32,847 nt of DNA from Chiloscyllium plagiosum (taxonomy: Eukaryota): positions 84,979,968-85,012,814 of the forward strand of contig NC_057718.1 of the NCBI RefSeq assembly GCF_004010195.1. Reading direction: 5' to 3'. How positions within the stretch are numbered: the stretch's first letter is position 1; every line of letters begins with the position of its first letter. Positions 7,541 through 32,847 of this stretch are shown here, piece after piece. The position numbers were made by a program, and so were the translations under genes. The notes under the pieces were generated by a model. The model was not told where the DNA came from. It searched no databases and saw only the letters and a program-made list of their open reading frames with translations.

Positions 7541-7765
7541 GTGAGTCAAAAAAAGTTGTGCTGGAAAAGCACAGCTGGTCAGGCAGCATCCAAGGAGCAG
7601 GAGAGTTAATGTTTCGAGCATAAGCTCTTCATCAGAGATTCCTGATGAGCTTATGCTCGAAATTTGACAAAAACTCCTTGGATGCTGCCTGACCGTCTGT
7701 GCTTTTCCAGCACCACACTTTTATTTTGACTCTGATCTCCAGCATCTGCAATCTTCACTTTCTCC
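7541..7765. mobile_element. Penelope-like (PLE) inverted pseudo-LTR mini-element (fold-back plus 3' tail) with two decayed hammerhead cores
   Basis: Arms of about 90 bp (gtgctggaaaagcacag..gcagcatccaaggag..tttcgagcataagctc..atcag / ctgatgagcttatgctcgaaa..ctccttggatgctgc..ctgtgcttttccagcac) plus the tail ccagcatctgcaatcttcactttctc, which is the reverse complement of the PLE end at 19097-19130. Possible degenerate TSD tgtacaagtag/tgtacatggag. Confidence 0.85.
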
Positions 7766-7789
7766 TGTACATGGAGTTGAGTCTAAAAA

Positions 7790-11530: not shown

Positions 11531-12559
11531 TAATACCAGATTAACACATGGTAGTGAATGCTCATCACTGAGTGATATACAATGTAACTTAAACAATGAA
11601 ACCAAACAAAATTAAGTGATGATTCAAAAGATCTAAAAATATTGGTATTGCTGTTGTCTTTCAAACACTATCAAATTATATCTGAAGAATAACACATTTC
11701 TAATCGAATTAGAGCTAAATACACTAGCAATACAGTCAGCTGCCTAGGCTGCAAATCCTGTCTAGGAAGCACTTATAGGTTTTAAAGTTGACACTTGGAG
11801 AAATGTTAATTGTGAAGCTTATGATTCAAAAAGCTTGGATCCAGGTTATCATACACAAATTTACTTGTGTGGATTTGAGTTCTTGTTTGAAGCGTAGAAT
11901 AAAACAAAGATCTGAGTAGGGTTTGTAGTGCATTTAGGTATATTTTAAAAATTATAAAATTTGAGCTGTGGCTGCAATTAGTCATGTAATATGTTGTGAT
12001 AATGGAAATCTAGCTCAAATGGTTAAATCTGGTAGTAAATATTCCTGGATGCAAGGTATCTTTTTAAGAAAGGAGAAGGAAGGGAAGTAAGAGGTGCTGC
12101 TCTAGGCTGCCATCTTGGTGCTACATTCAGTGGGCGTTGCTGCCACTTGGGTTGAATGAGCAGATCTAACCATCATGCCCAAGACTGTGATCAATTGTGT
12201 GACGCTGGTCTAACATGCAACCACAATCCATCACTCCGCTAATGGTTCTGGTCCCAAAAGTGAGAAATTGCAACTGATATGGTTTTGGCCACATTTCCAC
12301 CCTTGATAACAGTACTATAGCGTGATCCCTCAGAGAGTCTGGAAGAGACAGAGGATTAAACATATAATCAGAGCAGTGTTAGAATCGTAAGGCAGCAATA
12401 GGGAATTTTAGCTACCCAAGTATTAACTGAGATCATTTGTGTGCAAGATGGGGAGGGAACAAAATTTTTAAATTGCGACCAAGAGAACATTTTAGCTAAT
12501 CTGCAGCAAGATCCAGCAGAGGGGGATGCAGTTCTGGACCTAATATTCAAAATAATTCT

Positions 12560-12762
12560 AAAGTCAAAAGTCACACAACACCAAGTATTAGTCCAACAGG
12601 TTTATTTGAAGTTGCAAGCTTTTGGAGCTGTGCTCCTCCAGGTAATGAAGGAGCAGCTGAAACTGAAGCTTGCAACTTCAAATAACCTGCTGGACTTGTA
12701 ACCTGGTGTTGTGTAACTTCTGACTTTGTCCACCCCGGTCCAACAGTAGGACCTCCACTTCA
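12560..12762. mobile_element. PLE-derived fold-back mini-element (second family), decayed hammerhead centre
   Basis: aaagtcaaaagtcacacaacacc..gtccaacaggtttatttgaagttgcaagctt / aagcttgcaacttcaaataacctg..ggtgttgtgtaacttctgacttt plus the tail gtccacccc..ctccacttca. Same family as 27722 and 28312. Confidence 0.8.
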
Positions 12763-13676
12763 AAATGTGCAGGGAATTTATACTTTAACTATGTGATTTC
12801 ACAGTTACTGCTTAGAGCAACAGCATAGTGGAAGTAGTGGTATCAAGAAAATAATTGACTGTCTTCTGCAATTATTTTCTGCAGTGATATCAATTTTGAC
12901 CCTGCTTCTTCCAATCTGAAAAACTTATCACTCTATCGTTCATACATATAAGCTATTCACCTGCCCAGGAGTATGAGTTGTTGTTAGCCTGATGGCCTTT
13001 GGCATCTATAACTGGTCATAATTGTATCGTTCAATCAGCCATCTTTTGCTGACCAAATGTGTTTGTGCACACACCTCTGGTGATACGGGATTTTATTTCA
13101 CCTCCACCTATTTACAAAGCATGACTGTGTGCTCTGGTAACTTGTTTTCAAAACTGCAGCAATTCCTTCCACAGTTCTTTGTTAACTGTCTTTTTAGCCC
13201 ACAGTCAAAGATGGAAAATTAAAACATAGTCTTTACAGTGACTGTAGCTTAGTTAGATTTGGGATAGTTACTCAAAAGGACAAGGATCAGCAGGGAATAA
13301 AAGTTTTAAGACTAGATGTGACTTGGCCCAAGTGGATGAGGAGCAGCTGCTGTCAGATCAGTGGGCGCACTAAAGGAAGAAATAGCAAGAGTGCAGAGCA
13401 AGTGTGTCCTTGTAAAAATAAAGGAAGGAATGAAGACTGGAGAAACCTGGATGTGAAGGTGCATAAATGTTAAGATTAAGGGGGAAAAGAAGAAGCTTAT
13501 GGCAGATACCGAGGGGTCGATATGGCAGAGTCCCTGGAGGGGTATCAGAAATGTAGGAGGGAACTTTAGAAAAAAATTGAGAAAGCAAAGAGTGTGCATA
13601 AGAAAACATTGAGTTGAATAAAAGATTAAACATAGATAAAGAGCAAGAAAGAATAACTAGGGAAAGAACATGGCCA

Positions 13677-14637: not shown

Positions 14638-16431
14638 AGAGTGTGGCCATTAGGTATAATAGGGATAACTTGTGTATGGACCTTGAAACTGTGGGCACAG
14701 ACCTCAATGAAAATCGTCAGCCTTGACAATAGAAAAGGATAATGCAGGTGGAGGACCATGAGCTATTGTTTCATGAGGACCATGAAACAACGTCGAGAGA
14801 GTGTGTGCGCAGGTACTTACAGCTTAAGTAGTTTTAGAAGTGGAAGATGTGAAGGCTCAGATAAGATGTATGTTAGATTGGAGGGAAAGGAGGAAATATC
14901 GGGTCAGAGCAGTAACTTTTCAAGTCTTTGGCCACAGGTGAGGTGCCAGAGGACTATAGGGCCACTAGCATTGACCTGTCCTTTCTTTTAAACAAAAAAA
15001 GAAGCAATAGATAGACCATGAAATTACAGTCTAGTAAGCTTAACCGCCTGTGGTGGGGAAGTTGTTAGAATTCTGAAGAATAGAATATACCTACACTTGA
15101 AGATACATAGATTAATTGGCAATAGTTGGTATGGATTGGTTAAGGGAGGATTGGGTTTAACAAATTTCATTAATTTTTTTTTGAGTATTGATGAGGTGAT
15201 GCATCTGGCGAAGGCCATGTGAACTTTAATGTGGCTTTTGTCTCGCTTGTGGCAGACTTGTCAAGAAGGAAAGAAGCAGTGAGATCCAAGGCAAAGTGAC
15301 ACCTTGGAGAAAAAAGGCTGAGAGTCGAGAAGCAGAGGATGGTGGTAGAGGGATGTTTCTGTGAATGGAAATCTGTTTCTAGTGGAGTTAAGCAGGGGTC
15401 TGTGCACTTGCGGTATGGATTGAATGTAGGAGGTATGATCAAGAAGTTCCTAGATGATGTAAATTGTGGGTAGAGTGGTAAAGAGTGAGGTGGCTAGCTA
15501 TATACTGCAGGAGGATGTGCAGAGCAGTGGTAAATGGAATTCAACCTGGAAAATTGAGGTAAAGCACTTATGGAGGGCAAGCAGGGGAAGAGATTACATG
15601 AATGGTGGACCCCTAGAAACTAGTGAAGATCAGAGGGATATCCACAAATCCCTGAAGATAACAGGGCAAGTAGCTAAGGTGGTTCTAATGGCATATTGGA
15701 TACTTTATTAGCCTAAGCATTGAATTCAAGAGCAATGTTATGTTGGAACTGCATTAAGTGCTAGTTAGGCCGAAACAGGGATTTGTTTCTGATCATTGCA
15801 TATTAAGAAAGATGTGATTGCTCATGAGGGCATAACTCGCACTTAATTCAGTTCCAGCATAACATTGCTCTTCAGTTCTGTGCTTTGGCTAATAAAGTAT
15901 CCCATCTGCTGCCAGTACATAAGAGACGGTGCAGTGGGAGATTTACCAGGATGCTGACAGGGCCCGAGGGTCTGAGGTGTAAGGGAAGATCAAATAGGCA
16001 GAGGTTGTTTTTCCTTGGATCAATGAAGATTGAGAGGGAGCTTGATAGAGGTATACAAGATTGAGAGACACAGAGAGGGCCTTTAGAAGAACATTTTTTT
16101 TTCCCCATTAATAGTGAGAACAGTCACTGGGGGCATAGATTTAAGACAAGTGGTAGAAGATGAGGAAGAGAGTTGAGAAATTCTTTCCAGAGGGTGGTGG
16201 GACTCTGGAATTCACTGCATGAAACTCTCTAGAAGAATATTTAGAAATTCACATAAGTTGCCAGAGCTTCCAGGACTATGGGCCAGAAGCTGGAAAGTGG
16301 CATTAATGTAGTGAGATCCTTTATTGACTAGAGTGGACATGATGGGCTCAATTGGCACTCTTACATTGTAAACAGTTTTTTCAAAATTTCATTTTTGAAA
16401 GGAAGAGTAGCTTTTACATTTTTGAACAATC

Positions 16432-16550: not shown

Positions 16551-17018
16551 CTTAAGTAAATGTTTATTTCTCAGTACCAAACTGTACTTGCAACAACACT
16601 CACTCTGTCACACGCAGAAGAGATACGCGCACACAAGAAAAAGTGACTGCAAAAATGGTAGCATGCAATTAGGGATTTTTTGGGCTTAAAAACCTATTAC
16701 TTCGAGTCTTTTGAGATGGAAGCTGGAAATACTGTAGTTGCTATAATTCTTTTTGTTCACTGAGGAAATGTAGATTGTCACCAAAAATACCAGTATCGTT
16801 GTGGGTTACTACTTGTGACAGCAAGTTTCTGACTTTGCCCCAATTGAAGGGCAGTTGAGCCTTGTATTGAAGACCGGTCCTTTGCTAGCCCCACGTATTT
16901 GCCTGTTGGTGAATTTTAGGTAAGGTTGTTCTTCCTTTCACTGAGTAGGATCCTCCCTTTGGTTTCCTTGTCTCTTGGACTTTAGTGTGAAGATGGGACT
17001 GTGTCCACAAGGACTGTG

Positions 17019-17547
17019 GATCAGTGGTGCTGGAAGAGCATAGCAATTCAGTCAGCATCCGACGAGCAGCAAAATTGACGTTTCGGGCAAAAGCCCTACA
17101 TCAGGAATAAAGGCAGAGTGCCTGAAGCGTGGAGAGATAAGCTGGAGGAGGGTGGGGGTGGGGAGAAAGTAGCATAGAGTACAATAGGTGAGTGGGGGAG
17201 GAGGTNNNNNNNNNNNNNNNNNNNNNNNNNNNNNNNNNNNNNNNNNNNNNNNNNNNNNNNNNNNNNNNNNNNNNNNNNNNNNNNNNNNNNNNNNNNNNNN
17301 NNNNNNNNNNNNNNNNNNNNNNNNNNNNNNNNNNNNNNNNNNNNNNNNNNNNNNNNNNNNNNNNNNNNNNNAGGAGGCGCCCAGTCTCCCCAATGTAGAG
17401 GAGACCGCATCGGGAGCAATGGATACAATAAATGATATTAGTGGATGTGCAGGTAAAACCTTGGATGTGGAAGGCTCCTTTAGGGCCTTGGATAGAGGTG
17501 AGGGAGGTGGTGTGGGCACAGGTTTTACAGTTCCTGCAGCCGGAAGT
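17019..17547 (-). mobile_element. Penelope-like retroelement 3' part (GIY-YIG endonuclease plus pseudo-LTR), spans the gap
   Basis: Minus-strand FTCTSTNIIYCIHCSRCGLLYIGETGR (GIY-YIG with CxxC). pLTR hammerhead motif at 17075-17108. 7-bp TSD gactgtg (17012-17018 / 17548-17554). Confidence 0.92.
17206..17371. other. Assembly gap (166 N)
   Basis: Run of N inside a G-rich PLE segment. Confidence 1.
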
Positions 17548-18191
17548 GACTGTGTCAGTCATTCCTATTAACAGTACCATGGTTAAGTGCATCTGCAACA
17601 GGATGAATTGGGAGGACAAAGTCAAGGAAGTTCTCTGCCCCTTGTTTGTTTCCTCAATATCTGCCGCAGACCCAACTACCATTTAAGTTTCTTTTGGACT
17701 CTATCAACTTGATCAGTATTAATGCCACCAAACCTTAGTAATGGATGTTGAAGTGCCCCACTCAACATTTGTGCCCTTGCCATCTTCACTTCTTCCAAAT
17801 GATTTTCAACATTGGTACTGATTTATCAGGCTAAGGAAAGAGTGATGTGTGGTGATCAGGAAGCTTGGGAGGTATTCTTGCTCTTCTTTGACCTGGTGCC
17901 ATGAGACTTTGAGGCCTGGAGCCAATATTCAGGAATGACAGGTTGATATCCCATTGTGCTACCCTCTGGTGGGTTTGGCTTGCTGGTAGAACGGGCACAC
18001 CCAGGATTATAATGGTTTTTAAGCAGTCTTCTATAAAGTATGATTTAGGGTGTTGCTTGTTTAATTGTGGGACAATTCTCCCTGTTTTGAAGCAAATGTT
18101 AGTAAGGATATTTATGCAGAGTCAACCGGGCTGGGTATATCATGTTAATGGTATCTAGGTTGGTGTTAAGTGATCTGTACAGTTGCACTGA

Positions 18192-18734: not shown

Positions 18735-19070
18735 TGTGAATGTTTGAGTACAGAAAAGGTTTGAGTATGATTTCAAGGATGCGGAATTTTAGTTTGTAGG
18801 ATAGATTGGAGAAGATGATCAACATGCTCAATTTGAAGTTGATACTGAAGGCAGAGAGAAACTATTTTCTTTGGTGTGATTGAAAACTAAAGGAAAACGG
18901 TTTTGTGGTAATTGGCTAAACAGTGAAAGGTAACAAAAGTTTGGGAACTGGAGTTTGCTTGCGGTGGACACATCGATTATTAGTTTTTAAATGGATTTGG
19001 ATAAACGCCTGAAGATTAACATTTGCTGGGTTTTGGGAAAGGGTGGGAGAGTAGGGATAACTAATTAATG
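18735..19070 (+). mobile_element. Very old CR1 3' fragment
   Basis: ttgagtacagaaaaggttt...gatagattggagaag...tttaaatggatttggataa, typical of the CR1 ORF2 end and 3'UTR. Confidence 0.5.
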
Positions 19071-19094
19071 GACTTCCTGTGGTGGAGATTTTCT

Positions 19095-21240
19095 GTAGGC
19101 AAAAGTGAGGACTGCAGATGCTGGAAACCAGAGTCTAGATTAGAGTGGTGTGGAAGGCTTCTTTGGGGCCTTGGATGGAGGTGAGGGGGGGAAAGTGTGG
19201 ATGCAGGTTTTGCAATTCCTATGGTGGCAGGGGAGGGTGCCAGGATGAGAGGGGGGGGGGGTGTGGACCTGGCCAGGTAGTTACGGAGGGAACAGTCTTT
19301 GTGGAAAGGGATGGGTAGGGAGATATATCTCTGGTGGGGTCCGTTTGGAGGTGGCGGAAATGTCGGCGGATGATGCGGTCTATGCGAAGGTTGGTAGGGT
19401 GGAAGGTGAGGATTGGGGGGGGATTCTGTCCTTGTTACGGTTGGAGGGGTGGTGTTTGAGGGCAGAGGTGTGGGATGTGGATGAGATGCATTGGAGGGTA
19501 TCTTCAACCACGTGGGAAGGGAAAATTCGGTCTCTGAAGAAGGAGGCCATCTGGTGTGTTCTGAGGTGGAACTGGTCCTCCTTGGAGCAGATACGGCAGA
19601 GGCAGAGGAATTAGGAATATGGGATGGCATTTTTGCAGGAGGTAGGGTGGGAAGAGGTGTAATCCAGGTAACTGTGGGAGTCGGTGGGTTTGTAAAATAA
19701 AAAAAGTCAGTGTCAAGTCGGTCGTCATTAATGGAGATGGAGAGGTCTAGGAAGGGGGGGGGAGGTGTCTGAGATGGTCCAGGTGAATTTAAGGTCGGGG
19801 TGGAATGTGTTGGTGAAGTTGATGAACTGCTCAACCTCCTTGCGGGAGCACGAGGTGGCGCCGATGCAGTCATCAATGTAGCGGACGAAGAGGTGGGGAG
19901 TGGTGCCGGTGTAACTACGGAAGATGAACTGTTCTACATAGCTGACAAAGAGACAGGCATAGCTGGGGCCCATACAGGTGCCCATGGCTACCCCTTTGGT
20001 CTAGCGGAAGTGGGAGGATTCGCAGGAGAAATTGTTATGGATGAGGACCAGTTCCACCAATGGAAGGGTACTGTTGGGGACGTCAGGAGAGGAAGAAACA
20101 GAGGGCTTGGAGGCCCTGGTCATGGCAGATGGAGGTGTAGAGGGATTGGTTGTCCATGGTGAAGATAAGGCCTTGGGGCCGGGGAAGCGGAAGTCTTGGA
20201 GGAGGGGGAGGGTGTGGGTGGTGTCTTGAACGTATTTAGGGAGTTCCTGGACTAGGGGGGATAGGACAGTATCAAGGTAGGTGGAGATGAATTCGGTAGG
20301 GCAGGAGCATGCTGAGACAATGAGTCGGCCGGGGTGGTCAGGCTTGTCGATCTTGGGAAGGAGGTAGAATTGGGTGGTGCGGGGTTCCCGGACTACGAGG
20401 TTAGAAGCTGTGGGTGGGAGATCTCCTGAGGTGATGAGATTGTGTTTGGTCTGGGAGATGATGGTTTGATGATGGGGGTGGGGTCATGGTTGAGGGAGCG
20501 GTAGGAGGAGGTGTCTTCCAGTTGGCGCCTGGCTTCAGCGGTGTAGAGGTCAGTGCGCCAAACTACCACTGCACCCACTTTAACTGCTGGCTTGATGGTG
20601 AGGTTGGGATTGGAGCAGAGGGAGTGGAGGGTGAGAGGTTGGAGTGGGAGAGGGGGGTAGACAGGTTAATGTCTCGGCGGCAGTTGGAAAGGAAGACATC
20701 GAGGGAGGGTAATAGCCAGCGTGGGGTGTCCAGGTGGATGGAGTGTGTTGGAGGCGGGCGAAGGGGTCCTCGGAAGGAGGGTGGGACTCCTGATTGAAGC
20801 AGTAAGCTCTGAGGCAGCGGAAGAAGTAGTGTTTGTCACAATGCATGTTAAATTCATTTATGCATGGGTGGAGGGAGATAAAGGTAAGGCCTTTGCTGAG
20901 GACTGATCGTTCATCCTCAGTGAGGGGGAGGCCTGGGGGGCTGGTGAAAACTTGGCAGGGCTGGGTAGGACCTGGTGTAGGTGTGGAACTGGGAGTGGGT
21001 GCAGAGCCTGTAACTGAAGTGGGTGTGGTGGAAGGGGGAATGGGGGTGGAGTCATGAGCAGGGGTGATGTTCCCCTCAGGGTTCTGGGGGGGGCGGGGAT
21101 GTTGACAGTGGGACCTGTGGGGGTCATGTCATGGTGGGGGGAGCGGAAGTGATGTCACTTGTGGTGCATGAGGAATCGTGAGGGGTGGGAGTGGCTGTGG
21201 AAGTGGCCATGATGAAGGCGGAAGTAATGTCATCGATCGG
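19095..21240 (-). mobile_element. Penelope-like retroelement: N-terminal region, RT and thumb, with GIY-YIG/hammerhead deleted and the pLTR end retained
   Basis: Minus-strand GVAMGTCMGPSYACLF..RYIDD (YIDD 19869-19880), PFLDLSISI, VVVWRTDLY, LSKGLTF-like segment; pLTR terminus aaagtgaggactgcagatgctgg at about 19100; strongly G-rich + strand. Confidence 0.93.
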
Positions 21241-24935: not shown

Positions 24936-26650
24936 ACAGAGTTGATTTAATAACTTTGCTATTCGTGGTAATTTTTAACTTGAACAAACTGTGTCTCCCT
25001 ATATGATCAGGATACAAACTTTATTTTAAACTCTTTTTCTTGGCATAAATGTGAATTAAGCAGTCACGTTCTCAAATTTGCTTTCTGCGAAACCTTACAA
25101 ATGAATGCTCTGCTTTGTCATCTTAATTAAACTGAGGATTTCCAACAAATGGAAATATATTGGTTGAGCTGAGAAATTAAACCACTGAAGGTTGTGTGCT
25201 GGTTAATAGGCACAACGTGAACTAGAACATTTGCCCGTTCTATCTGGGAGCAAATCCAAATTGATGTGCTGAAATCTTTTCTTCCTTTTGAAATATGACT
25301 TTTATAAATTGATCGACCTTTAGTAGAGCAAATGTCATTTCAAGCACACACAGTCCTGAGCATAACACTGATCATAATTTGGGACTAATTGACTTGTTCC
25401 CTACGAGAAGTAAATTGTTGGGACAAAGGAGATGATGCTGTATGCATTGCACCACATACCAAGATTTAATGTAGAGGTGCAAAATATTCCACTCCTCAGC
25501 ATGAAGTGTGTAATGAATGAAAAATCAGTCTTTTTAGTGAGGTCATTTGTTCAGGGACCTAATGGACAATTATTATTTGAACAACTGAATTACCTTCATG
25601 GGTGACTCTCTGAAAAGTGTCTCGAAGGCACAGGGCGAGCTTGCTCATCTGGTAATCACGATCTTGGTTCACTCTGACATTCTATTCAGGCTACTGAACC
25701 TTGGTAGGTGGTGACAAATATGTGCATGTTGTAGGTTGATCAGCCAATAAAGTGAGTACCTGTGAGTTCAGTATGTTGCAATGAACAAAAATTGGCTAAA
25801 TTTGAATATGCAGTTCATACATGTTGATGATACAGAACTTGGAAGCATTATGAACTGAGGAGGATATGGTAAACCATTAACAGGACATTGAAAAGTTGGT
25901 AAAGTGGTTGGATAGGTGATATATGGAGTTCAATTTTGAAAAATATGAGGTGGTGTATTTTTGTAGGAAGAACATGGAGATCTGAAAACAAAGGGTATAA
26001 CTCTAGAGGAGTGTAGGAGTGCATGTATACTTGGGTATACAAGTATTTAAAGTATGTACAAGTACTTACTTAGGCTTAAGTATTTAAAGGTGGCAAGACA
26101 GGCTGAGGGAAGTAGTGGAGCAGGATGACTAAATCACTTGACATTTGGAGTCGACTTCCAGCATTAAAGAGTTTATAGATGTTACATTGGTGGGAAGAAA
26201 CCTCTGAGGGGTCCAGAAGCTGCTTTCCTGAGCAAAGGCAAGATGTACACTTCTATACATTTTTATCCCACCTTTAGTGATTACAGATCAGTCATGTTAT
26301 GAATTAATTACATACACACCTAATCAAATTAATCAGTGATCGTATGGTCAGTGATGGGCAGCCTTACAGACAACCCCAGGTATTCCCATGAACTGTATTT
26401 ACTAGCCATCCTATCTTTAACCTTGGATCTTTACAGTACATCTTATTCAATCCACATTCCAGTGCCTGCTGATTTATGCATCTGTAATTCAGTTCTCCCT
26501 CTAAACAGTGTGGGGGGGGTCTTTCCTGCTGTCTGAGGAATTGTTTATCCATAGGAATTTTTGGAATTTTTCTCATGCTTAGTTTTTTTTAAAGAAAATT
26601 ATATTGAAAATCTAAACTGATTATCTGGCAGTCTGAACTAAATTTATGTT

Positions 26651-26690
26651 GCAGACGTTTCGTCCCCTGTCTAGGTGACATCCTCAGTGC
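26651..26690 (-). ncRNA. Minimal type I hammerhead ribozyme motif (intact core)
   Basis: Minus strand GCA-CUGAGGA-U-GUC(acctagacaggg)GAC-GAAA-C-GUC-UGC: stem I GCA/UGC, stem II GUC/GAC, palindromic ACGU helix III and a GUC cleavage triplet. Confidence 0.78.
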
Positions 26691-26845
26691 TTGGGAGCCT
26701 CCTGTGCAGCGCTTCTGTGATCTTTCTTCTGGCATCTGTAGTGGTTTGAATCTGCTGCTTCCAGTTATCAGTTCCAGCTGTCCGTTGCAGTGGCCGGTAT
26801 ATTGGGTCCAGGTCGATACAGAAGCGCTTCACAGGAGGCTCCCAA

Positions 26846-26885
26846 GCACTGAGGATGTCACCTAGACAGGGGACGAAACATCTGC
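26846..26885 (+). ncRNA. Hammerhead motif, sense copy with GUC->AUC change
   Basis: GCA-CUGAGGA-U-GUC..GAC-GAAA-C-AUC-UGC; the ACGU palindrome is broken (ACAU). Confidence 0.6.
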
Positions 26886-27721
26886 AACACAAATTCCCAG
26901 CTCGGCGAACAGAACAACAACAACGAGCACCCGAGCTACAAATCTTCACACAAGCTTTGAAGTCTGAACTAAAGTAAGTAGATCTTTTCTGTTTGTGATG
27001 GATTTCAGACCTTAAATCAGCGAGGTATGGAATTTTTCTGTCAGCATATTCAAGGGTGTCCTGATCCAGCTGTCTCAATGTAAACAACTGCAGTTGTGTT
27101 TGCAACACGGCACTTTGCAGACTGTCTTAATCTTATTACCTTGGATATATTCTGTCTACAAAGCTACAACTGTCCTAACTTATGGTTTACTTCAATACAT
27201 ACTACACTAAACAAGCTACTACTTCAGCTGAAAATCCTCTCTGTCACTTTTGGCCTTTTTATGTGGCTTTTATGCTATGGGTAGTCCCAATAGTGTCCTG
27301 GGATTTGTTAATATGGGCATTGAATGCAATAGCAAGGAGGTTATTTTGAATTTGTATAAGACTCTTAAGTTGGCCTCAGCTGGTGTTGATGTCTATTTTG
27401 CTCCACAACTTTGGATGGCACAGGTTATCCGTACAACAGCAGTGGCTTTGTTATCGGACAGTCGGCAAGAGATTCAAGTGTCTCCAAAGTAGCCGTGTGT
27501 CGACTTGTGGTGACACTTCTCCACTAATCTCTGCCCTACACCGAGACAGTACATTTGTAAGAATTTTTAAAACAGTTTATCAGTCACATGGGCAATTGTC
27601 ACCACATAGTTTAAAGTAGGTAATTATGAATTTACAAAGCCCGATGAATGTCAATGTCCTGTGATAATATGTGACTGGATTACAGAAACTGATTATCGTA
27701 TTCTTCATGATTGTATTGATG

Positions 27722-27880
27722 GTTAAAAATCTCACAACACTAGGTTATAGTCCAACAGGTTTATTTGGAAGCACTAGCTCTCGGAAAGTTAGTGCTTCCA
27801 AATGAACCTGTTGGACTATAACCTGGTGTTGTGAGATTTTTAACTTTTGTACACCCCAATCCAACACTGGCATCTCCAAA
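27722..27880. mobile_element. PLE fold-back mini-element (second family), near-perfect hairpin with TSD
   Basis: Arms 27722-27783 / 27784-27844 with essentially no spacer, tail gtacacccc..catctccaaa, and TSD attgtattgatgg / attgtgttgatgg (27710-27722 / 27880-27892). Confidence 0.88.
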
Positions 27881-28311
27881 TTGTGTTGATGGGAAGAGAT
27901 TAAGGCAGAAGGGTTTTGCCTGTTGTAAATAGGGGATTCACATAGCTATGCTAATATTGAGGGGAAGTAAGACTGTGGGAGTGGGAGGCAGTTTAACAGG
28001 GTTGTGGCCAAGGCTATCAGTCTTGTCTGGGGCTACAGGGGGAATCCACATGTGTGGCTCCAATAGGCTCTATTTCTGAGATACAGTTAACCTCCCCCCT
28101 ACTGAGATGTTCTGTCTGTATTGTAAGAGTACAGGCTTGATACTGCAGTAAGTCCTTTGGCAGTGGAATGTTTAACTCTTGAGTCCCCAATGTGTCTTGA
28201 AAGAGAAGTAAAGCATGGAACTGACCCCTCTGTGGCATTTTAACTTACTCACTGGTGTCTGGGACCTTACTTTTGGAGGGCTGTGAAAGCAGGCATTGGA
28301 GATATTACAGA

Positions 28312-28390
28312 CCACCTGATGACGGAGCAGAGCTCCGATAGCTAGTGCTTCCATTAAACCTGTTGGACTGTAACCTGATATTGTGTGATT
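28312..28390 (+). mobile_element. Single PLE pLTR fragment (second family) with hammerhead motif (GAAA->GATA)
   Basis: CAC-CUGAUGA-C-GGAGC-aga-GCUCC-GAUA-G-CUA-GUG, flanked by the repeat attacaga (28304-28311 / 28388-28395). Confidence 0.8.
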
Positions 28391-32584: not shown

Positions 32585-32847
32585 ACGGAAATGTGTTGCT
32601 GGAGAAGCGCAGCAGGTCAGGCAGCATCCAGGGAACAGGAGAATCGACGTTTCGGGCATTAGCCCTTCTTCAGGAATGAGGAAGGTTTGTCCAGCAGGCT
32701 AAGATAAAAGATAGGGAGGAGGGACTTGGGGGAGGGGCGTCGGAAATGTGATAGGTGGAAAAAGGTCAAGGTGAGGGTGATAGGACAGATTGGGGTGGGG
32801 GGGGAGAGGTCGGGAAGAAGATTGCAGGTTAGGGAGGCGGTGCTGAA
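32585..32847 (-). mobile_element. Penelope-like element pLTR/3' region inserted into the CR1; runs out of the window
   Basis: aaatgtgttgctggagaagcgcagcaggtcaggcagcatcc... is similar to 7555-7635 and 17025-17105, followed by G-rich PLE sequence. Confidence 0.88.
32641..32677 (-). ncRNA. Minimal hammerhead ribozyme motif (intact core)
   Basis: Minus strand AUUC-CUGAAGA-A-GGGC-uaau-GCCC-GAAA-C-GUC-GAUUC; ACGU palindrome; weak stem I with a U-U mismatch. Confidence 0.7.

Follow-up and report, generated by a model that had tools for sequence, protein, structure and literature searches.

A 318-bp insert in the genome of the bamboo shark carries a hammerhead motif on each strand, arranged head to head between perfect direct repeats, and raises the question of what kind of element left it there, by what route, and whether it has been active since. 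The reading that explains it best, to which we give a probability of roughly 0.85, is that two 5'-truncated 3' ends of one Penelope-like element (PLE) family lie head to head between 13-bp repeats, likely placed by a single event and likely inert since. Within the window (the whole stretch of DNA analysed, 32,847 nt), the insert occupies 26643-26960 and is flanked by the direct repeat AGTCTGAACTAAA at 26630-26642 and 26961-26973, identical at 13 of 13 positions. Exact 13-mer repeats about 331 nt apart were found at 3 of 4586 sampled window positions, all three at the insert locus. The inverted arms (26643-26718 and 26818-26893) measure 76 bp with three mismatches (96% complementary), or 78 bp if the 2 nt overlapping the left repeat are included. 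An earlier sequence-only reading had described a 318-bp insert with perfect 13-bp repeats and 76-bp arms, and its coordinates proved right. The repeats share 1 nt with the element at the right and 2 nt at the left, and from the anatomy of the insert we infer that they are a target-site duplication (TSD). The features are as follows, with signed numbers counted from the ATG in stem II.

26630-26642: left target-site duplication, 13 bp; microhomology, with the final 2 nt common to the element
26641-26817, minus strand: inverted 5'-truncated PLE copy, about -135 to +39/+41, without a tail
26651-26690, minus strand: minimal hammerhead motif whose core is intact and whose palindrome reads ACGU; cleavage predicted after 26654 (criteria from the available text of PMC4209133)
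26671-26817, minus strand: final 48 codons of the PLE RT/GIY-YIG ORF, with its stop; 73-90% identical to P0001-P0003 over all 48 aa
26719-26817, minus strand: 99-nt hairpin loop between the arms; ORF sequence in the minus copy only
26817-26818: inversion junction, head to head; lacks exact microhomology (GAT matches but for one missing base)
26818-26961, plus strand: PLE copy in direct orientation, truncated at its 5' end (about -36 to +107); its end is the distal 3' terminus of the family
26846-26885, plus strand: minimal hammerhead motif; A at 26880 against G in the family, breaking the ACGU palindrome
26899-26937, plus strand: predicted stem-loop with an AC-rich loop that holds the proximal 3' terminus of the family (26922)
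26923-26961, plus strand: 39-nt PLE "tail" between two family termini (concept from the available text of PMC8557442 and PMC11167929)
26961-26973: right target-site duplication; its first base is common to the element

Two of the 24 runs supplied contigs of organism A (X4 and X5), one supplied contigs of organism B (X9) and one supplied RNA of organism A (X21). No empty allele was present among the listed joints and pieces of X4, X5 and X9. An assembly artefact was rejected, as the insert is connected to its left flank by contigs of X4 and X5 and to its right flank by contigs of X4 and X9, with no listed piece covering the whole stretch. A DNA transposon or MITE with terminal inverted repeats was likewise discarded, since the right arm falls 66 nt short of the right end and the insert consists of PLE ORF and pLTR sequence.

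The insert is composed of two 5'-truncated ends of one Penelope/Poseidon-type retroelement, head to head. On the minus strand, 26817-26674 encodes 48 residues that matched four bamboo shark proteins, three of them (P0001-P0003) over the full length of the peptide (E 2.7e-17 to 1.6e-9 for these three of the four matches, among 12 candidates). The peptide forms the C-terminus of the RT-bearing ORF P0002, and likewise of P0003; the RT of P0002 scored E 3.3e-6, just below the Pfam cut-off. RT and GIY-YIG both exceeded the cut-off in P0051 and P0108, two of the five relatives scanned, and GIY-YIG did not exceed it in P0002 itself. On the plus strand, translation from the ATG at 26855 yielded 35 residues matching P0022 residues 19-53 at 86%, and because of this match we read the plus copy as a pLTR with the start of the ORF. 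The start codon at 26855 is assigned by analogy, an in-frame ATG lying 18 codons upstream in P0022. Stop codon and ATG both fall inside stem II, and the pLTR overlaps the end and the start of the ORF with the hammerhead motif. [quoted passage not shown]

A Zn-finger-like linker between RT and EN is given as an extra feature of Neptune and Nematis in the available text of PMC8557442. Since CxxC was found in the 45 residues before the GIY-type motif in none of the 50 motif-bearing proteins (of 122 proteins), the sequences point to a Penelope/Poseidon type rather than Neptune. Relatives of P0002 numbered 610 proteins at E<=1e-20, and the 120 of these that were listed came from carpet sharks, flatworms and unnamed sources. 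The best named relatives outside sharks among the matches listed (P0007-P0122) were from tapeworms and flukes, at 43-56% identity, with some ENA proteins at 57-59%; by sequence identity, the tapeworm and fluke proteins offer a candidate lead for host-parasite transfer. Two shark gene models, P0001 and P0004 (NT5DC1 isoform X3 and MAP3K7 isoform X3), finish in about 100-170 residues of PLE endonuclease, possibly through exonisation or as an annotation artefact. The openly available literature that was searched yielded no paper on this shark PLE family.

Contigs matching the locus numbered 7647 in X4, 14194 in X5 and 9815 in X9, and since nearly all of them fall on the insert, the parent PLE family is abundant. 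Unrelated AT-rich flanks start at 26922 in 85, 66 and 89 contigs of X4, X5 and X9, and at 26961 in 124, 78 and 96. The X21 RNA places the family termini at 26924 and 26961/26962. The 39 nt between 26922 and 26961 are the PLE tail, and the plus copy ends at the distal terminus of the family.

Counted from the ATG, the two copies are staggered rather than nested: the minus copy begins at about -135 and reaches +39/+41, whereas the plus copy begins at about -36 and reaches +107. The copy with the tail extends less far at its 5' end than the one without. Because the copies overlap without either lying wholly inside the other, the fold-back of a single cDNA is impossible unless a deletion followed, and because neither strand could have templated its own second half, two template copies were likely needed. 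The layout favours two separate priming events, and it could be imitated by a central deletion in a longer palindrome.

We lean towards a double nick with dual priming from two template reads as the route of formation, holding it only slightly more probable than otherwise. The GIY-YIG endonuclease would nick both strands, 13 nt apart; the bottom-strand nick would prime reverse transcription at the distal family start (+107), running to about -36, whilst the top-strand nick would prime at +39/+41 through 2 nt of microhomology, running to about -135. The two cDNA ends would then be joined. Two template copies would be read, either two RNAs or two pLTR junctions in a tandem RNA, and the hammerheads would be passengers brought by the pLTR. 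In the available text of PMC11167929, the enzyme of Poseidon from Anolis carolinensis (PAc) cleaves both strands and extends them, the tail is set by internal RT starts and a dimer is predicted. With its end at +39/+41, the inverted copy stops 27-29 nt before it would reach the proximal family terminus, an unexplained departure from the textbook form that counts against the main reading. Classical twin priming of the L1 type on a single RNA was rejected, 76 nt being copied twice at this locus.

A second route to a one-off insertion is possible, although we regard it as rather doubtful: a cDNA from +107 to about -135 would have folded back and been copied on itself to +41, and a central deletion would later have taken 99 nt from the plus arm, or an antisense template would have primed itself, a process to which the available text of PMC3846280 attributes junction palindromes. 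A 4-nt palindrome does lie 1 nt from the junction, but one of that length is common by chance, and the fold-back at 27722-27844 looks nested by eye. Long palindromes are unstable, which counts in favour of a fold-back followed by deletion. The present layout (-135 to +41 against -36 to +107) nevertheless demands that extra deletion, and the Poseidon enzyme extends both strands in vitro (available text of PMC11167929).

The breakpoint between the copies bears on whether the hairpin belongs to a family of its own. Colinear family copies run on past 26817 into upstream ORF sequence in 31, 47 and 68 contigs of the three sets and in 28 RNA reads, and the listed loose ends at 26817 and 26818 were ordinary upstream element sequence. 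At least 15 antisense-to-sense joints were detected, at depths of 10-189, each one in the main joint list representing one contig of one run, and 14 of the 15 listed have other breakpoints (23 joints and 4 further rows stand beyond the 15 listed). Pattern scans of two metagenome collections, one viral collection and one collection of prokaryote genomes each gave 0 loci, which is what animal DNA would lead one to expect and is uninformative on copy number. No second copy of the insert occurs within the 32.8-kb window, and no dominant family with a fixed 26817/26818 breakpoint was seen among the listed joints. The sequence-only reading had offered two alternatives; the first, a one-off PLE insertion that was truncated and inverted, is consistent with the data, whereas a non-autonomous family with a common breakpoint found little support, copies being colinear across 26817/26818.

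An improbable version of the latter is that the whole hairpin unit forms a small non-autonomous family copied in trans by the PLE enzyme. The joint at 26817/26818 recurs in X9 at a depth of 33.9, about twice the two-contig flank depth of 17, and two other X4 joints reach depths of 188.8 and 129.3 against flank depths of 16-33; contig depths are not copy numbers, and values several times the flank suggest that some inversion junctions may be multi-copy. In the available text of PMC3846280, PLE pLTRs are able to mobilise sequence in trans, and retrozymes are proposed as PLE derivatives in that of 10.64898/2026.07.22.740005. Against this stand the differing joints, the colinear contigs and RNA reads, the single copy in the window, the lack of a tandem array and the predicted masking of the ribozymes. 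It is similarly improbable that the Penelope enzyme re-copied the hairpin, or other high-depth junctions, as a fold-back retro-MITE family whose ribozymes would stay off through the antisense arm until a protein unwinds them. Inversion joints of higher depth run from 26673 to 26818 and from 26782 to 26881.

The sequence-only reading had also placed a hammerhead on each strand, with the minus copy complete, and this was borne out. The core CUGAGGA...GAAAC[G/A]UC starts at 26687 on the minus strand and at 26849 on the plus strand, in the arm order CUGAGGA-U-stem II-GAAA-C[G/A]UC; read from the sequence, stem I has 3 bp and stem II has 3 bp, an A.G mismatch and a further 3 bp. The conserved core, the extra base after A9, G10.1-C11.1 and helices I and II (helix I of 3 bp) are in place, and positions 15.2-16.2 of the minus copy are palindromic (ACGU; self-duplex -3.1 kcal/mol), so by the features described in the available text of PMC4209133 the putative minus motif is a complete minimal hammerhead. 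Those of the plus copy are not palindromic (ACAU; +1.3 kcal/mol): it has A at 26880, where the family base is G in 134 of 153 X21 reads of the main direction. The predicted cleavage-site base C17 (26654 and 26882) is often U in the family (59 of 152 X21 reads at 26882). Searches with Rfam returned no hammerhead near the locus at E<=5 (two unrelated weak matches) and no match of any kind in the window at the gathering score, which we ascribe to the limits of Rfam models where minimal hammerheads are concerned, not to absence of the motif.

Folding predictions suggest that these motifs are masked. Free-energy folds of the isolated motifs did not recover the hammerhead and were no better than shuffles (z -1.0 to +0.35), and hammerhead pair probabilities were low even in isolated copies (0.007-0.27). 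As equilibrium predictions without protein, the full hairpin has an energy of about -186 to -192 kcal/mol, and the penalty for enforcing the hammerhead is 71.4 (plus) and 79.7 (minus) kcal/mol in the full insert, compared with 4.8 and 6.4 kcal/mol for isolated copies. Whichever direction is transcribed, the antisense arm precedes the motif, and because it is predicted to pair with the whole motif, self-cleavage of read-through RNA is unlikely, the hairpin being predicted to block ribozyme folding. The two motifs cannot dimerise in cis, since they are never on the same strand. The claim that transcription in either direction yields a hammerhead inside a long hairpin therefore holds literally for the motif in each transcript, but not for a folded ribozyme, the hairpin being predicted to prevent folding and the plus copy lacking the helix III palindrome. 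In the available text of PMC4209133, a monomer of the minimal hammerhead did not cleave and dimers cleaved at a low level, and in that of PMC11167929 cleavage by the Poseidon hammerhead requires protein, whilst insertion in vitro does not require the hammerhead.

The RNA of X21 concerns the family more than this copy. Its reads run mostly in one direction relative to the element, and because 380 of 393 fit the insert only partly and three are at least 99% alike, they derive from other family copies. Around the locus itself, about 2% of the run gave the left flank no reads and the right flank a depth of about 1x at most, a coverage uninformative on locus expression. No pile-up of RNA ends was listed, but the library is a poly(A) single-cell one, unable to show such a pile-up. 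With respect to RNA editing, A>G and T>C changes occurred at 14 and 10 places in X21, similar to the 10-11 and 8-11 in contig runs, and the X21 reads come from other copies, so these counts say nothing on editing.

The perfect TSD is no sign of youth, and the description of the element as young was contradicted by organism B and by insert positions that differ from the family. Record 24 of X9 spans 26908-27217, crossing the right junction and reaching 53 nt into the insert with 11 differences, and because this contig of organism B bridges the junction, the insertion is likely older than the split of organisms A and B. Record 17 of X9 spans 26380-26660 with 15 differences and three gaps, and its 18 aligned nt inside the insert at the left junction are below the 31-letter rule for bridging. 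Organisms A and B differ at 26 of 591 letters (about 4%). At least seven insert positions (26707, 26727, 26736, 26756, 26767, 26916 and 26954) differ from more than 90% of the X4 family depth, with 126 further rows of X4 differences beyond those listed. In the right flank, joints skip 131 nt (26990-27122; X4 and X5) and 55 nt (27099-27155; X4, X5 and X9), possibly reflecting indel polymorphisms or another repeat.

That the host has retained this old insert for a function, as a dsRNA hairpin or a ribozyme switch, is very improbable: the insert does occur under two species labels, with arms still 96% complementary and a very stable predicted hairpin, but its near-private substitutions (at least 7 of 318) are comparable in magnitude to the flank divergence between A and B, none of the three differences between the arms has a Watson-Crick compensation and one of them breaks the helix III palindrome, and none of the 141 window frames of at least 62 aa matched any Pfam family, host domains included (short exons would escape).

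The window holds three more short fold-backs of other families (7543-7732, 12560-12727 and 27722-27844). The one at 7543-7786 belongs to another PLE family and has hammerhead cores on both strands (7635, minus; 7642, plus), a tail-like extension to about 7761 and weak TSD candidates of 9 bp. Those at 27710-27892 and 12546-12766 represent a third family with a tail of 30-35 nt on the right; the former is flanked by a 13-bp repeat with one mismatch (27710/27880) and has a tail of about 35 nt, the latter has an 8-bp repeat (12546/12759), and a direct copy of this family with a hammerhead-like core lies at 28316-28390. An inverted repeat at 15691-15909 (74% over 223 nt), in which no TSD was found, is unlike PLE ends and looks LINE-derived by eye. 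Decayed pieces of a second PLE type were observed at 17000-17680, 19060-21130 and 32589-32677, with an intact-looking hammerhead core at 32673 (minus) and a GIY-type motif (17445-17377) with a CxxC linker before it, which we take to be Neptune-like.

Overall, the insert is a typical, ordinary by-product of Penelope-like retrotransposition, in an arrangement already described for PLEs. The origin of inverted pLTRs in PLEs is stated as unresolved in the available text of PMC8557442 and PMC3846280, and the use of this insert is as a mechanistic footprint for that origin. Because staggered pairs need two template reads or a later deletion, counts of staggered against nested fold-backs bear on dual priming versus self-priming. 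The right junction, common to organisms A and B, also provides a presence/absence marker between two species.

Among known systems, the non-LTR retrozymes of 10.64898/2026.07.22.740005, as far as its available text describes them, share with the insert a short, non-coding, PLE-derived sequence and a type I hammerhead, but they are head-to-tail tandems with hammerheads on one strand, and the insert, a single head-to-head pair, was rejected as a retrozyme on that requirement. Minimal hammerheads of PLEs (available text of PMC4209133) share the CUGANGA/GAAA core, the extra nucleotide after A9, G10.1-C11.1 and, in the minus copy, the palindromic 15.2-16.2; opposite-strand pairs 100-700 bp apart are described there from Schistosoma mansoni, and the present cores lie 162 nt apart. 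Stem I usually has 4-5 bp there, against 3 bp in the insert, whose plus copy has lost the palindrome and whose motifs are known from sequence alone. A likeness to PAc, drawn from its published description in the available text of PMC11167929, extends to an ATG at the start of stem II, an AC-rich stem-loop and two termini bounding the tail; the cut site lies at +28 in the insert against 26 nt in PAc, the 3' end at +107 against RT starts at 111-118, and the AC-rich loop at the proximal terminus rather than the distal one.

The closest resemblance is to the complex insertions of EN+ PLEs. An inverted 5'-truncated copy with tail and TSD is described for PLEs in the available text of PMC8557442, PMC3846280 and PMC8969392, and inverted pLTRs with TSDs of 8-10 bp in that of PMC3846280. 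Like the complex insertions in the available text of PMC3846280 and PMC8557442, the insert has a head-to-head inverted copy, a TSD, an ORF start inside the pLTR and a tail at one end (39 nt, against 30-40 bp). Unlike them, both of its copies are stubs without the ORF body, its TSD is longer (13 bp, where the rotifer examples have 8-10 bp), its inverted copy does not reach the proximal terminus but stops 27-29 nt before it, and its copies are staggered rather than nested, a small addition to the published anatomy of PLEs.
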